From NCBI GenBank assembly GCA_964409875.1, contig CAYPEN010000001.1, positions 198,637 through 262,636 of the forward strand: 64,000 bases of DNA. Reading direction: 5' to 3'. This DNA comes from an uncultured Gammaproteobacteria bacterium. GTDB taxonomy: Bacteria > Patescibacteriota > Microgenomatia > Levybacterales > GWA1-39-11. Below the pieces are notes generated by a model. It made no database searches and was not told the origin of the DNA. It was given only the letters and a program-made list of their open reading frames with translations. Shown in pieces: positions 3,039-43,742 of this stretch (position 1 is its first letter; each line of letters begins with the position of its first letter). The position numbers and the translations under genes were made by a program.

Positions 3039-3677
3039 ATGTATAATCATTTTATGCTCGTTTTTATCGATGATTCCGGAGATCCGGGATTTAAATTAGA
3101 AAAAGGTTCCTCAACTCACTTTGTAATATCTTGCATAATTTTTGATGACGATTTGGAAGCAGAAAAAACATCTTTAGCTATTAAAGAACTCAGAAGAAAA
3201 TTAAAAGTTAATGATCGATATGAATTTAAATTTAATAAAACTGATTTACGTTTTAAAAAAGTTTTTTTTGATACGATTTTTCCCTTCAAATTTAGAGTAA
3301 GGGCTATTACGGTTGATAAAACAATAATTCATAGCTCTCGTCTAAGAAATTACAAAGAAAATTTTTATAACTACATCATCATGCAGGTTTTGAAGCAAAG
3401 TAAAGGACATATCAAAAATGCAAGATTAAAATTCGATAAAAGAGGAGAAAAAACATTGAGAGATGAGTTAAGAGTATATTTAAGTCGTGAACTTGATAAT
3501 AGAAGAAATCATATTTTCAGCGATGTAAGATTTGTTGATTCTAGACAGAATACTTTAATTCAACTAGCCGATATGGTTGCCGGCTGTATAACGTCTTTTT
3601 CTAAAGGCAAAGATAGGATTTTCTATAAACAATTAAAGGATAACGGTAGAGTAGAGGATGTCTGGCAGTTTAAATAA
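3039..3677 (+). CDS. DUF3800 family protein
   Basis: N-terminal FIDDSGDPGF motif and ~210 aa length are characteristic of DUF3800. A start at MLVFIDD (3054) is possible. Confidence 0.6.
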   Translation: MYNHFMLVFIDDSGDPGFKLEKGSSTHFVISCIIFDDDLEAEKTSLAIKELRRKLKVNDRYEFKFNKTDLRFKKVFFDTIFPFKFRVRAITVDKTIIHSSRLRNYKENFYNYIIMQVLKQSKGHIKNARLKFDKRGEKTLRDELRVYLSRELDNRRNHIFSDVRFVDSRQNTLIQLADMVAGCITSFSKGKDRIFYKQLKDNGRVEDVWQFK

Positions 3678-3968
3678 TTCGACCCTGCTTTCTATCCAAA
3701 CGTAAGTTTGGAACGCGCACCATACGGTGACAATTCGAAAACAGGGTCTTTGTAAAATTATTATTACATATTGAGAAGTTCTTGTCAATTTCCCCAGCCT
3801 CAAAAAAATTCGCAAAAAACCTCGCTTTCAGGTGCAAGAAGCACTTTGTAATTGTCGTTTTCTCAAGAATTTGAGAATAGAAAGGTGTAACTGAAGGTTG
3901 TCCATGGGTGGTGCCCGCCCCCGGATAGATCCGAGGGCGGACTGGAAGACGGCTGGGAGACGGGAAAC

Positions 3969-4310
3969 CTACTTCGAGCGCAGTGCTCGTTTCGGCCTCT
4001 TTGCCTCTGACAACCTCTTGCTGACCAGTGCCACAACGGCAAGGCGGAACGCATCCTTGGCAATGACTCGCGCTAGCAAGCCATCATTGGTGCGGTCCTG
4101 CCATCGGGTGACCCCGGTCCTAATTGCCTCGGCGACAATGTGGGCCCAGTACTCCGACCTATCGTCGATACGGGACGCTTCTTCCAACTGCTTGTAGAGC
4201 AGTCGGAGGGACTCGTCGTCACTCGACTTAAGGAAGGCATCGACAAGCTTGAGAGCTTGTCTAACACTGATCGCCTCCTTCGCACGAGACAGGGCTTGGG
4301 AAACAAACAT
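3969..4310 (-). CDS. hypothetical protein encoded in a GC-rich island
   Basis: 113-aa ORF with GGAG 8 nt upstream of the ATG. Local GC is far above the surroundings (island ~3890-4400). Confidence 0.45.
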   Translation of the reverse strand: MFVSQALSRAKEAISVRQALKLVDAFLKSSDDESLRLLYKQLEEASRIDDRSEYWAHIVAEAIRTGVTRWQDRTNDGLLARVIAKDAFRLAVVALVSKRLSEAKRPKRALRSK

Positions 4311-4553
4311 AGGGCATACTCCGCTGGGGCCGGTCTAGCCAACCCTCGAAACATTTGAACCTCCTGGTTCGACGTACATCTCTATTTCAAGATGCTGCGA
4401 TCTAGACCCATTCGCGGACAATCCCTAGTCATTCCCGGTTATACATTATAGGGTGAAATTGCAGAATGTCAATACTATAAGCTTAGAAATACTATCTTGC
4501 TGTCTCAAAAAAGAGCATTGCTTTCGTTTTAAGATAGGTTTATAAATGAGTTA

Positions 4554-5216
4554 GTGAATAAAGGATTTAAAAGCTTTATTCTTGCCCTTATTCTTACCGC
4601 AGCTTTTGCTTTTCCGGTTTCTGCTGCAAGCTCCAATTTTTTATCTCAGGCAACAAAATTTTATAACAGAATTTGTAAATTGCGTTATGTTCCGGAAAAT
4701 TATGCTTTTCAGTGCTATGTATTCGATAAAGTCGGAGAGATGGATAGTTCTTTAAACTCGCTTGTTCACCGCGTTTCAACTCTTGAAACCAAAGACAATT
4801 CGCAAGACCAAAAGATACAAGGCCTTCAGGACAAAAACGCCTCGCAAGACGCGGAAATTACAGATTTGAAAACAAAAGTTTCAGAATTAGGAAATTCAAA
4901 ACCCGCAGATCCTACTGATATCATATTTTTCAATGGGAAAGTTAGCCCACAAGGTGCTGTTTCACAAGTTTTCGACGCTCAAAAATATTCAAAAGTTACA
5001 TTTACTTATCAGGGAACATCAAGTGCTTTTGTTGTTGAAGTAAGTGGTAATCAAACTGATTGGTTTACACAATATATAAGAGGAGAAGGAGAAAATAAAG
5101 CAGGTGGCTCCGTAACTTTGGATTCTGCTGGAAGATATTATAGAGTCGAAGCCGGCAGCACTACATTGCCCCCAAATGAAGTACATGAATATGCCTTAGG
5201 ACATTTCTTCAACTAG
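4554..5216 (+). CDS. secreted hypothetical protein with coiled-coil segment
   Basis: N-terminal signal peptide (…LILTAAFAFPVSAASS), then a Q/D/K-rich coiled coil and a beta-rich C-terminus. Confidence 0.55.
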   Translation: MNKGFKSFILALILTAAFAFPVSAASSNFLSQATKFYNRICKLRYVPENYAFQCYVFDKVGEMDSSLNSLVHRVSTLETKDNSQDQKIQGLQDKNASQDAEITDLKTKVSELGNSKPADPTDIIFFNGKVSPQGAVSQVFDAQKYSKVTFTYQGTSSAFVVEVSGNQTDWFTQYIRGEGENKAGGSVTLDSAGRYYRVEAGSTTLPPNEVHEYALGHFFN

Positions 5217-5280: not shown

Positions 5281-6108
5281 ATGAAACCGTACTTCCTCGA
5301 TAATAATTTCGCACTCTATCAAGGTGATTCTTTAGAACTTATGAAGAAATTCCCGGACAACCATTTTGATATGGTTTTTGCTGATCCCCCATACAATCTC
5401 TCAAACGGTGGGTTTACAGTCCACGCAGGAAAGCGAGTAAGTGTTAATAAAGGAAAGTGGGATGAAAGTAAAGGATTTGATGAGGATTATGAATTTCATA
5501 CAAGGTGGTTAAGTGAAGTGAGGCGTGTCTTAAAACCTAATGGTACTGTGTGGGTAAGTGGAACCTATCACTCAATTTATCAATGCGGTCATGCTCTTCA
5601 AAAAGCAGGGTACCACATTTTAAATGATATTGCATGGTTCAAGCCAAATGCATCTCCTAATTTATCTGGTAGATATTTTACGGCAAGCCATGAAACTCTC
5701 ATTTGGGCGCGACGTGACAAAAAAGCAAAGCATATTTTTAATTACAAGGCTATGAAAGAAGGAAATTGGCATTTGTCTGACTTTATAAAAAAGGCTGAAA
5801 AACAAATGAGAAGCGTTTGGGCAATAGGAACTCCAAAGCCCGAAGAAAAAAAATTCGGTAAACATCCGACGCAAAAACCCCTAGCTCTTCTTGAGAGAAT
5901 CATTCTTGCCAGTACCAATAAAGACAGCGTAATTTTGGACCCATTCACAGGCAGTTCAACAACAGGTATTGCTGCAGCAAAATTGGGGCGAAAATTTATC
6001 GGAATTGACACTGAAGAAAATTACCTTAAACTATCGATAAAACGATATAAAGATTTGGATAGCATGCTTTTTAAATATGCAAATAATAACTCGGCTGCAA
6101 GCGATTGA
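5281..6108 (+). CDS. type II DNA methyltransferase, beta class (N6-adenine or N4-cytosine), DpnA-like
   Basis: Motif IV FADPPYNL lies near the N-terminus. Motif I LDPFTGSSTTGIAA lies near the C-terminus (IV..I order, i.e. beta class). Confidence 0.85.
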   Translation: MKPYFLDNNFALYQGDSLELMKKFPDNHFDMVFADPPYNLSNGGFTVHAGKRVSVNKGKWDESKGFDEDYEFHTRWLSEVRRVLKPNGTVWVSGTYHSIYQCGHALQKAGYHILNDIAWFKPNASPNLSGRYFTASHETLIWARRDKKAKHIFNYKAMKEGNWHLSDFIKKAEKQMRSVWAIGTPKPEEKKFGKHPTQKPLALLERIILASTNKDSVILDPFTGSSTTGIAAAKLGRKFIGIDTEENYLKLSIKRYKDLDSMLFKYANNNSAASD

Positions 6109-41312: not shown

Positions 41313-41645
41313 ATGGAAGATTGTATATTTTGTGAAATCGTGAAAGGTGAAATACCTAAGGATTTTGTTTATAAGGACGCAAATATTGTTGCATTTGACG
41401 ATATCCACCCCGTTGCAAAAGTTCATGTATTATTTGCTTCAAAGGAACATGTTGCGTCATTTGAAGACCTGCAGGATGATGATATTTTGGCTTCGGTCAG
41501 ACGTGGAATCCAAAAAGTTGTTGCTCAAAATGATTTGGTCGGGAAAGGGTACAAAATAGTCGTGAACGGCGGCGGTGCGCAAATTATCAATCATCTTCAT
41601 TTCCATCTCATCGGCCCGACCGGGCTAAAAGCCCCGATTCGCTAA
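41313..41645 (+). CDS. HIT-family (histidine triad) hydrolase
   Basis: Histidine triad HLHFHLIG at the C-terminus and the N-terminal CIFCEIV pattern. Confidence 0.85.
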   Translation: MEDCIFCEIVKGEIPKDFVYKDANIVAFDDIHPVAKVHVLFASKEHVASFEDLQDDDILASVRRGIQKVVAQNDLVGKGYKIVVNGGGAQIINHLHFHLIGPTGLKAPIR

Positions 41646-41715
41646 AAATTCAAAATAAAAAAACTCAGGAAAGAAGAAAGTATTTCAAAAGTTAGCTTTT
41701 TTGTGGTTGGATAAT

Positions 41716-42480
41716 CCCCCGCCCGGCCTACTTTCGTAGAGCCGAGCGGGGGTGAAACGGGGTTCGTGCCCGGAGGGCACGTAAATTCGCGGTCCGTCCG
41801 CTCGCGCGCGCAAATAGGCACGATTACGGGCCGGAGAACCCCCGGAATTGTTACATGCGTATCCCGGTGTGGGAGGCAGGAACCGGTGCGCTGCAGCAAA
41901 CCACACAGCTCCCACCTCCCCCTAGCCGGGGGAGGGAGTGCGGGAACGGGAGAGCATAACTCCCACCCCCTCCTGGCACCGCCGGGCATACTACCGGAGG
42001 TGCTTCCTCATCGTGGACTCATGGGTCCTCGGAAAAGTTGGGGTGGCGGCGTGGGGTGGTCGAGAATCCACGCCGCCAAGAAAGGACTAGGCGGGTTGTC
42101 TTGCTCACCCTTCGGGGGTGGGCTCAGTGGGGCTTCTTCTCCGGATACAGCCTAAGTTGGCTGACTTGGTGTCTGGCGTCCTCTCCTTTGCAGCCATGGG
42201 CTGCCTGGGTGTAGAGCTCCCGATTCGGTTAACAGCGTGTAGCTGCCTTGGTGCCGGCAATAAACCGACGGTTCCCGCCAAGTCGGGTCGGGACCGTGGG
42301 TTTACCCCGTTGGTATGGGGCCGTTCCCCATCTTGCGGAAGGTAGTGTCCTTGCGGACGCTCCTCCCCGTGACCGGGAACTAAGGCGGTGGTCGCCCCAC
42401 AAAGGGGCAGCCGAGGGCGTGACGTGGCATCGTATCCTCCGTAGCCTGATCTCCTGCAACGCAGAAAGGGAATGGATATA
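41716..42480. ncRNA. candidate large structured non-coding RNA (unclassified), ~780 nt, GC-rich
   Basis: About 60% GC in a ~38% GC genome, with no credible ORF. Many perfect hairpins: a 12-bp stem at 41716-41760, a 10-bp stem at 42043-42078, and a CACCC-UUCG-GGGUG tetraloop hairpin near 42107. Short stretches resemble RNase P CR-II and tmRNA 5' ends, but the overall architecture fits neither. Confidence 0.3.
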
Positions 42481-42662
42481 TACAACAATCCTTTCCTGCG
42501 GAACATGCAACAATAATTTCAAAGAACTATGAGCGTTTATGGCACTCAGACGGTCATTATAGTACCGCAAAAATCACCCGTCAAGAGTGTAAGAAATATG
42601 AGAAATGTAAGAGTTCTGACACTTCTCTTGCAGGATATTTACCTCTTTATTACAATCTATCT

Positions 42663-43742
42663 GTGAATACCGAAAGGCAGAATGGGGCGGCACAAAACCC
42701 CGATGAATCCCAGCCGACATTTCTTGACATGCGTCTTCCGAGAAGAAGGCTGCTCCGGTGGGGATTGGGAGCCGGCATAGCAGCATCAGCCGGAAATCTT
42801 AATTTCACCCAAGTTCCTGATATCATTAACGGGCTTAAAGCAGGCTATGAATATGGACCGGGTTTTGTGTCTGCGGTTGCCTCCGACCCTGAAGCGGCGT
42901 GGGAGACATGGAAGCTTATCCAGGAACCTGATGAGACGTACCGGAAAAGTCCTTTTTTTGGAAATTCACTGGAATACCCAACATCTGCCCATAACGTACT
43001 GATTGCATTCGGGGATAGTAATATGGTGGGAGCAGAGGGGAGGGATAGAGCAAATTCACCTGTAAGCCTTTTTAAAAGACGGGTGAAAGACAAATGGGGA
43101 ACTGACTGGGAAGATTACAATATAGCTCATAGTGGAGATACCACAAAGCTTGTTATTCAAAATCAATTGCAGTCTCAGCAGGCAAAAGAGGCATTCTCCA
43201 AAGGGGATTTTTGTGATGTGTGGATAAATGTAGGAGGAAACGATTTTTCAAGCGTTGCGAATACTCCTGATGAATTTTCTGAAGTCAAGGAGTTGGGGCA
43301 GGACCCCTGGAGGCATCCTGACTATCTTTTGAAATACACCCCAAGACTATTGGAAAATTTAACAGTATTCCGGCGTGATTTCCATACATTGCTTTCAGCA
43401 TTGTACGAAATGCAGGGGGCGAAAATAAAACATATAGTAATAATGTCAGCTCCCGATTTCGGAAAGGCACCGTCTATTACGTCCCAAGATGTTGGGGATA
43501 AAAAATATCACATACCGCTTGATGATGACTTTGCGTCAAAAATTGTCCATAACCTATCCATCCGGATGAATAATGAGATGTTCGGGGCCGCGAGCGAGTT
43601 TCACGGTCAAACAGGCACGAAAATTGTCGGAATTGATACCTTTAAGGATTCGATTTTTGACCGTGACCAGCATTTGACCGTCGAAGCGGTCGCGGCTATT
43701 GCTGACGATGCTTTTTCCCGTGTGGAATTTCATGCGGCATAA
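42663..43742 (+). CDS. Tat-secreted SGNH/GDSL-family hydrolase (putative)
   Basis: Twin-arginine signal (PRRRLLRWGLGAGIAASAG) and a GDSL-type motif IAFGDSNMVG. Confidence 0.55.
   Translation: MNTERQNGAAQNPDESQPTFLDMRLPRRRLLRWGLGAGIAASAGNLNFTQVPDIINGLKAGYEYGPGFVSAVASDPEAAWETWKLIQEPDETYRKSPFFGNSLEYPTSAHNVLIAFGDSNMVGAEGRDRANSPVSLFKRRVKDKWGTDWEDYNIAHSGDTTKLVIQNQLQSQQAKEAFSKGDFCDVWINVGGNDFSSVANTPDEFSEVKELGQDPWRHPDYLLKYTPRLLENLTVFRRDFHTLLSALYEMQGAKIKHIVIMSAPDFGKAPSITSQDVGDKKYHIPLDDDFASKIVHNLSIRMNNEMFGAASEFHGQTGTKIVGIDTFKDSIFDRDQHLTVEAVAAIADDAFSRVEFHAA

Follow-up and report, generated by a model that had tools for sequence, protein, structure and literature searches.

The DNA analysed here is a 64-kb stretch of contig CAYPEN010000001.1 (hereafter the window), and the subject of this study is a GC-rich element within it that probably encodes a large structured RNA. 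The element occupies the gap between a HIT-family gene (positions 41313-41645; PF01230) and a GDSL-type hydrolase gene (42663-43742), both of which lie on the plus strand; the wider gene neighbourhood comprises YchF, an unknown gene, HIT, the GDSL hydrolase, S21, YbeY and DnaX. Between positions 41657 and 42523 the GC content is 0.594, which is 17 points higher than the window mean of 0.417. An initial annotation had reported a block of ~60% GC in a ~38% GC genome; the value for the block agrees with ours, whereas the background is higher than was stated. Relative to the limits proposed at the time (41716-42480), the predicted RNA starts about 70 nucleotides (nt) past the right end; it runs on the minus strand and carries a conserved mini open reading frame (mini-ORF). 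The functional unit is thus longer than first stated, about 41699-42584, because an AT-richer 5' part and a promoter belong to the element as well.

Protein-coding capacity was assessed for the open reading frames (ORFs) of the GC-rich region, the longest of which are 113-133 amino acids (aa) in length and every one of which is rich in Arg, Pro and Gly. Seven of these ORFs were compared with Pfam and gave no match at E<=1, and the 133-aa ORF had no homolog among 5.8 billion protein clusters. A profile of the plus-frame ORFs matched only spurious ORFs that had been miscalled inside the same element of relatives; this search also led to a full-length relative of the element, L035. The initial description of the block as lacking any protein-like ORF, with Arg/Pro/Gly-rich frames only, is borne out by these empty searches. 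The minimum free energy (MFE) of a 781-nt stretch lay 5.1 standard deviations (sd) below that of dinucleotide shuffles on the plus strand and 7.6 sd below on the minus strand; none of the 20 shuffles reached as low an energy. That the block is GC-rich, poor in ORFs and strongly folding is therefore confirmed as a real observation. The element was found at the same site in independent assemblies and samples, and is therefore no assembly artefact.

Syntenic loci were reached via the hydrolase protein, which led to a Candidatus Levyibacteriota metagenome-assembled genome (MAG; locus L003) and to related assemblies. Seven distinct versions of the element were obtained, each located between the HIT and hydrolase genes. 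Six of these form the window group, which consists of the window itself, L029, L035 (of the same lineage as L002), L003, L031 and L032, while the seventh, L004, is distant and has a hydrolase that is 50% identical. Three more distant relatives (L007, L008 and L033; hydrolase 37-45% identical) lack the element, and their HIT and hydrolase genes are separated by a gap of 42-104 nt. Further look-ups through hydrolase cluster members gave only sequences identical to L003, L035 or L004. A metagenome scan by exact pattern, combining a tail motif and a junction motif, returned 20 loci, all of them chance matches without hairpin or GC contrast. As far as can be seen from the hydrolase-led synteny and this exact-pattern scan, the element so far appears confined to one small clade of Levyibacteriota, within the Candidate Phyla Radiation (CPR). 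The L002 contig (CAZMSF010000041.1) is itself syntenic with the Levyibacteriota loci and encodes a hydrolase whose protein is 86% identical to that of the window; the label of its MAG, 'uncultured Gammaproteobacteria bacterium', is probably wrong.

A near-consensus sigma70-type promoter points into the element from the hydrolase side. Specifically, this promoter (42584..42556, minus strand) has a -35 hexamer TTGACG (42584..42579), a 17-nt spacer and a -10 hexamer TATAAT (42561..42556), and it matches 11 of 12 consensus positions, a level (>=11/12) that is reached at only 4 sites in the 2x64 kb of the window. Across the homologs the spacer has diverged while the hexamers were held at the same place, reading TTGACG-17-TATAAT in the window, L029, L031 and L032, TTGAAA-17-TATAAT in L003 and L035, and TTGCAA-16-TATAAT in L004. 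In each intergenic region this is the only or the best promoter-like site, and no plus-strand promoter upstream of the element is conserved among the homologs. From the position of the hexamers, transcription would start at about 42549.

The hydrolase gene has a promoter of its own outside the RNA, read from the sequence as TTGCAG-17-TACAAT (42628..42656, plus strand), which stands back-to-back with the RNA promoter in divergent orientation at a distance of about 45 bp. It is kept in the form TTGCAx-17-TACAAT/TAGAAT both in relatives with the element (L003, L004) and in relatives without it (L007, L008), which makes the element a unit of its own, placed between the HIT stop codon and the hydrolase promoter. 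Only 6 nt separate the -10 hexamer of the hydrolase promoter (TACAAT, 42651-42656) from the annotated GTG start (42663). The hydrolase mRNA would then be leaderless, unless translation truly begins at the in-frame ATG immediately ahead of the twin-arginine motif (MRLPRRRLL).

Base pairing likewise pointed to the minus strand. On it, the terminal hairpin of the element forms 16 pairs, including 2 G-U pairs, while the plus strand has A-C mismatches there; in the L004 counterpart 15 pairs are contiguous, 3 of them G-U on the minus strand, and UUUU follows. For the 5'-terminal hairpin and hairpin H2 taken together, the minus strand shows 15 G-U and 4 A-C cells. The terminal loop GAAA and another loop, GCAA, are of the GNRA type on the minus strand only, since the plus strand reads UUUC and UUGC. 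For pairs predicted on both strands, 43 cells were G-U on the minus strand compared with 25 that were A-C. The RNA strand is thus very probably the minus strand.

The predicted transcript would run from about 42549 to about 41709, giving a length of ~840-850 nt, and all of the features that follow are on the minus strand. A 5'-terminal hairpin (UGAGUG...CGCUCA; 42530..42548) directly follows the predicted start; it has 5 G-U and 0 A-C cells and is present in all homologs despite differing loop and stem bases. The conserved unpaired motif UCUUUGAAAU (42516..42525), which is invariant in the six window-group sequences and recognisable in L004 as CUCUUUGAC, lies immediately 5' of a long-range helix (LR). 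In this 10-bp helix the 5' strand UGUUGCAUGU (42503..42512) is predicted to pair with the 3' strand ACAUGUAACA (41849..41858). LR was recovered in 4 of 4 independent single-sequence MFE folds; within the window group one of its positions is A-U in 3 sequences and G-C in 2, and L004 has UUAGCAUGCU / AGCAUGCUAA at the equivalent places. Hairpin H2 (42460..42500), with the 13-bp stem CGCAGGAAAGGA...UCCCUUUCUGCG, shows 10 G-U cells against 4 A-C and 2 pairs with a compensatory change. These features belong to a conserved 5' third (42256..42549), in which several helices carry compensatory changes (helices 1-14).

Downstream of the 5' third, LR would enclose a variable GC-rich centre of ~400 nt (41861..42255), with compensatory pairs in helices 15-25. 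Whole hairpins have been inserted and deleted in this centre, yet it stays about 60% GC and hairpin-rich. It contains a perfect stem (42044-42054 / 42068-42078), which had been reported before as a 10-bp stem at 42043-42078, with slightly different coordinates, as well as the UUCG hairpin that had been noted near 42107 (CACCC-UUCG-GGGUG, 42107-42121). In the window and L029 the UUCG loop of the latter hairpin is on the plus strand, and in L003 (about 5317-5333) and L031 it is on the minus strand; the loop has flipped between the subgroups.

The 3' domain (41754..41848) is predicted to form a four-way junction, composed of a closing helix (CGGGG/CCCCG) and three hairpins (UCGUGC/GCGCGA, GCGG/CCGC and GUGCCC/GGGCAC). 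It is followed by the GC-rich, 16-bp terminal hairpin with its GAAA loop and 2 G-U pairs (41716..41752). A 12-bp stem described earlier at 41716-41760 corresponds to this hairpin, the stem being present but spanning 41716-41752 with 16 pairs on the minus strand. The terminal hairpin is probably the 3' end of the transcript, either as a terminator or as a protective stem. Three independent contigs, those of L002, L031 and L032, start at position 1 inside or at the equivalent of this hairpin; the perfect inverted repeat probably disrupts short-read assembly. Just 3' of the hairpin lies the G-free tail AUUAUCCAACCACAAAA (41699..41715); no exact match shared by the window element and L004 is longer than its part TTTTGTGGTT, which is also conserved in L003. 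A tail motif of 10-12 nt is thus found between the HIT stop codon and the terminal hairpin at 41699-41710 in the window (plus strand: TTTTGTGGTTGG), at 5027-5038 in L004 and at 4907-4918 in L003. On the RNA this G-free, C/A-rich sequence might serve to load Rho, to bind a protein or simply as a 3' tail. An internal UGUGGUU can pair with the tail motif in the window only; as this pairing is not conserved, it was rejected.

Covariation with homologous regions, one of the checks suggested in the initial annotation, was assessed in the six-sequence alignment of the window group. For the 173 pairs of a structure that was predicted from this same alignment, and in which 92% of cells are paired, two-sided changes were found in 34 pairs compared with 17.5 +/- 2.9 in column shuffles (0/500). 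Controls in which the partners were slid by 1-3 columns gave 6-11 two-sided pairs. A covariance model of the 3' domain, made from the window group only, matched L004 over its full length at 5037-5174 on the minus strand (16.2 bits, E 0.066, 357 kb searched). Our own alignment places all five helices of this model, with changed sequences, in L004: the closing helix and three hairpins of the junction, and the adjoining terminal hairpin.

Next, we compared the rate of change in the different parts of the locus. Between the window and L003, identity was 80% for the HIT coding sequence and 79% for that of the hydrolase, and within the RNA it was 77% for the 3' domain, 76.5% for the 5' third and 56% for the centre; the spacer between promoter and hydrolase was 63% identical. 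The end domains of the RNA are constrained like coding sequence, while the centre drifts. Indels of 1-2 nt are present in conserved parts of the element, which counts against protein coding.

The 5' third contains the mini-ORF. Each element has a single GGAGG-N3-9-AUG on either strand, and in six of the seven homologs it occurs at the same position and on the minus strand only, with a spacing of N5-6 and beginning 100-118 nt into each extracted minus-strand sequence. By comparison, GGAGG-N3-9-ATG occurs 20 times in the 2x64 kb of the window, mostly away from genes. In the window the Shine-Dalgarno (SD)-like GGAGG (42436..42440) lies 5 nt upstream of the AUG of a 16-codon frame, MPRHALGCPFVGRPPP-stop (42380..42430). 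The region 42440-42380 folds into two hairpins: GGAGG is predicted to pair with CCUC inside the mini-ORF (alignment columns 138-141 with 164-167), and the middle of the mini-ORF forms a 9-bp hairpin (42390-42412). The peptide is kept as M[PS][RY][HL]ALGCP[FYH][VT]GRPPP-stop in five window-group sequences, and L004 has at the same distance from the start a 20-codon ORF that ends in GPPGSRP-stop. Counted from the predicted transcription start, the stop codon lies at a distance of 176-184 nt in window-group sequences and of 179 nt in L004.

Within codons 5-9 and 12-17 all differences among the five sequences are synonymous third-position changes, including UAG to UAA, and the sole indel within the mini-ORF is of 3 nt. 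Some of the third-position changes leave C-A mismatches in the ORF hairpin (pairs 170/188 and 173/185), which is better explained by coding constraint than by pairing. In L032, the SD is weaker and the stop codon is lost, the changes keeping the hairpin but altering the peptide. Among the 54 ORFs of at least 150 aa in the window, a 4-mer SD stands close to any candidate start in only 12, and GGAGG in only 2. Polyproline motifs such as PPP and PPG are known as stall motifs of the EF-P type, and the frame ends in RPPP-stop in the window group and in PPG...RP-stop in L004. Set beside the low use of SD sequences and the loss of the stop codon in L032, these endings make translation of the mini-ORF possible but somewhat doubtful.

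We consider it probable (roughly 60%) that the element encodes an independently transcribed, stable and highly structured RNA of ~840-850 nt, which is read from the minus strand and belongs to a new family absent from Rfam 15. A large structured RNA is preferred over a protein remnant because of the syntenic homologs, the compensatory changes, the conserved promoter and the lack of protein homology; as to kind, this agrees with the initial suggestion of a large RNA of the OLE/GOLLD/ROOL sort. The promoter at 42584..42556 would start the transcript near 42549, and the 16-bp GC hairpin at 41752..41716 would close it. The 5'-terminal hairpin would open the fold, after which LR would clamp the conserved 5' third to the 3' four-way junction and enclose about 400 nt of fast-evolving, always GC-rich hairpins. 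With its ends capped, its fold compact and its promoter strong, the RNA would be expected to be abundant and nuclease-resistant. Its role would depend on the folded state, and scaffolding or partnering proteins, as other large bacterial RNAs do, would be the most likely one. The two conserved end domains would then form the functional core and the centre a structural spacer, and the polyproline-ended 16-codon ORF in the 5' third may, more speculatively, let ribosomes engage or remodel the RNA.

Several observations weigh against this interpretation. The automated count of G-U against A-C cells is only moderately one-sided, and some central helices favour the plus strand. No U-tract follows the terminal hairpin in the window group. 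The covariation rests on few independent events in one narrow clade, with the structure taken from the same alignment, and the match of the 3'-domain model to L004 is marginal at E 0.066. L004 is missed by a covariance model of the 5' 180 nt, so that for the 5' third the case for homology between the two groups is one of position and shared features and has no score behind it. Finally, the scaffold function would be assigned by analogy only.

Membership of a known RNA family was examined with the 4227 models of Rfam 15, which were run at gathering scores on the window and at E<=10 on the elements of the window, L004 and L003, on both strands. At gathering scores there was no match on the element, the only match elsewhere in the window being the unrelated DUF3800-IX RNA. 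At E<=10 nothing on the window element scored above 19 bits, compared with the 34-82 bits that the listed families need, and on the divergent homologs L004 and L003 no model reached 20 bits. A covariance search against all Rfam models, which had been proposed as a check on the initial annotation, thus matched no family. ARAGORN found 0 tRNA or tmRNA genes in the 64 kb. Candidate families were rejected accordingly. RNase P RNA (RF00010/RF00011) gave no model match in any of the three homologs, and the strings resembling CR-II and CR-III, GGGUGAAACGGGG and GCAAAUAGG, are on the plus, non-transcribed strand. Unlike tmRNA, the element lacks a tRNA-like domain, a T-arm and a CCA end, and its mini-ORF differs from a tag frame in having its own AUG 5 nt after GGAGG and in ending GRPPP-stop, which is not a degron. 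Group I and group II introns found no model match, and the element is intergenic, without a host gene and with its own promoter. OLE, GOLLD, ROOL, HEARO and raiA likewise gave no model match in the three divergent homologs, and the neighbours expected for OLE, GOLLD, ROOL or HEARO (oapA, tRNA or phage genes, IscB) are absent at the locus.

The proposed RNA nevertheless shares features with several known systems. OLE (ornate, large, extremophilic; RF01071), which is thought to act as a protein-bound scaffold (PMC12265935, PMC12054373), is likewise an independently transcribed, lineage-restricted bacterial RNA of more than 600 nt, with many compensation-supported helices, conserved unpaired stretches and no known biochemical function. 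It differs in showing no sequence or structure match to the element, in occurring in Bacillota beside oapA and not in Levyibacteriota between HIT and GDSL-hydrolase genes, and in lacking a fast-evolving centre and a mini-ORF. GOLLD and ROOL, which form RNA-only multimeric cages (PMC12286853), resemble the element in their length of about 600-800 nt, GC enrichment, multi-domain organisation, closure by long-range helices and unknown function. The element does not match their models, however, and while GOLLD and ROOL are typically located in phages or beside tRNAs, the element has no viral, phage or plasmid match and no tRNA within the 64 kb. With tmRNA the element shares a large structured RNA, an internal short frame and a helix that joins near-5' and near-3' regions, but it differs in the absent tRNA-like domain and in the AUG, GGAGG and non-degron C-terminus of its ORF. 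Dual-function RNAs such as S. aureus RNAIII/hld and E. coli SgrS/SgrT, which are 230-510 nt long and base-pair to mRNAs via known seed regions, also have a short ORF in the 5' part and a long structured remainder. They differ from the element in this smaller size and in their known mode of action; translation of the element's own ORF is putative. Leader peptides such as tnaC and mgtL/mgtP control a downstream gene on the same transcript. They resemble the element in a short, Pro-rich, stall-prone ORF (RPPP-stop or PPG...RP-stop in the element) that is followed by alternative RNA structure, but the transcript of the element has no following gene and runs into the convergent HIT gene. This counts against a leader-peptide attenuator of the tnaC/mgtL type, there being no credible minus-strand ORF beyond the terminal hairpin.

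The alternative that keeps the same transcript is that it functions as an mRNA or dual-function RNA. Its mini-ORF (42430..42380) would be translated, and either the Cys/Pro peptide would be the product, or pausing at PPP-stop would make the ORF a translation-coupled sensor of the fold or lifetime of the RNA, comparable to Pro-dependent leader peptides. The single, minus-strand GGAGG-N5-6-AUG at a fixed position in six of seven sequences, the purely synonymous differences in codons 5-9 and 12-17 with a sole 3-nt indel, the occurrence of stall motifs in both groups and the C-A mismatches that fit coding constraint all favour this view. It is made unlikely by the scarce use of SD sequences in the genome, by L032, where the hairpin was kept over the peptide, by the predicted pairing of GGAGG and by the absence of a downstream gene to regulate. 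Moreover, a 16-residue peptide leaves about 650 nt of conserved structure unexplained, and the L004 peptide is barely alignable with that of the window. A plus-strand RNA, lengthening the HIT transcript as a long structured 3' tail or preceding the hydrolase gene as a 5' leader, was rejected as very improbable. It would suit the plus orientation of both genes, which are adjacent in the element-less relatives, and the plus strand folds well (z -5.1), has more G-U in some central helices and carries the UUCG loop in the window; alifold energies, moreover, fail to separate the strands (-160 kcal/mol for the minus strand vs -156 for the plus strand). On the other side, no plus promoter upstream of the element is conserved, and the hydrolase has its own promoter downstream of the element, also in element-less relatives. 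To these points are added the A-C mismatches that three hairpins (terminal, H2 and 5') show on the plus strand, the loss of both GNRA loops and the minus-strand UUCG loop of L003 and L031.

A decaying piece of foreign high-GC DNA, that is, a pseudogene or mobile-element remnant without function of its own, had also been considered in the initial annotation and could account for the GC excess of 17 points, the variable presence at one site among relatives and the near-neutral divergence of the centre. This is now very improbable: no tested frame has protein or Pfam similarity, the promoter is strong and conserved, compensatory changes occur and the end domains are conserved like coding genes. 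In addition, no terminal inverted repeats or flanking direct repeats surround the element, no second copy exists inside the 64-kb window, blastn against phage and plasmid collections gave no match, and pattern scans of viral contigs gave 0 matches. A mobile element or MITE was rejected for the same lack of repeats, the single copy in the window and the identical site in all genomes. That the element is a highly diverged representative of one of the known large RNA families (RNase P, tmRNA, group I/II intron, OLE, GOLLD, ROOL or HEARO) is extremely improbable. It was suggested by short strings resembling RNase P CR-II/III and the 5' end of tmRNA, which are literally present in the sequence, and the mini-ORF and the 5'-3' long-range helix recall the outline of tmRNA. 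These strings have no Rfam or ARAGORN support and lie on the strand that would not be transcribed, and the negative results of the family searches, the missing T-arm and CCA end, the untypical ORF with its AUG, GGAGG and RPPP end, and the absence of an intron host gene and of IscB, oapA, tRNA or phage neighbours all argue against membership. The earlier proposals of a divergent RNase P or tmRNA and of an ORF-less intron are accordingly not upheld.

The preferred interpretation of a new structured RNA family can be extended, though such an extension is conjectural and we would not expect it to hold. The element may represent a CPR-specific class of large ornate RNA, the core of which contains a ribosome-engaging polyproline mini-ORF, so that its fold would be coupled to translation or EF-P status. 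Alternatively, the RNA may assemble into a higher-order RNA or ribonucleoprotein particle like ROOL, GOLLD or OLE.

Two further loci were observed elsewhere in the window. The DUF3800-IX RNA (RF02968, 64.4 bits; 3677-3748, minus strand) abuts the end of a DUF3800-like ORF (3039-3677, plus strand) and is preceded by an 11/12 sigma70-type promoter (3788..3760, minus strand). A second GC-rich island (3840-4431, 55% GC) lies behind a 12/12 promoter, TTGACA-16-TATAAT (4472..4444, minus strand). This island has a 113-aa minus-strand ORF without Pfam match, folds 5.5 sd below shuffles and has U-rich terminators near 3830-3800. A small gene of foreign origin, or an RNA that includes a gene, would be possible explanations.

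Large bacterial RNAs of complex fold are so far few, and each discovery has led to new work, such as that on the ROOL and GOLLD cages seen by cryo-electron microscopy and on the OLE membrane particle. No description of such an RNA in the CPR or in Levyibacteria was found in full-text searches of the literature. The narrow distribution of the element, with seven distinct sequences in one clade, limits its general reach for now. For the tiny genomes of the CPR, keeping about 850 non-coding nt behind a near-consensus promoter is a cost, and the element is therefore presumably useful. The predicted RNA has a compact and testable architecture, in which conserved ends would be clamped together around a fast-evolving, GC-rich centre, possibly with a stall-prone mini-ORF. 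This architecture would be suited to structure determination and to asking whether translation and RNA folding are coupled.

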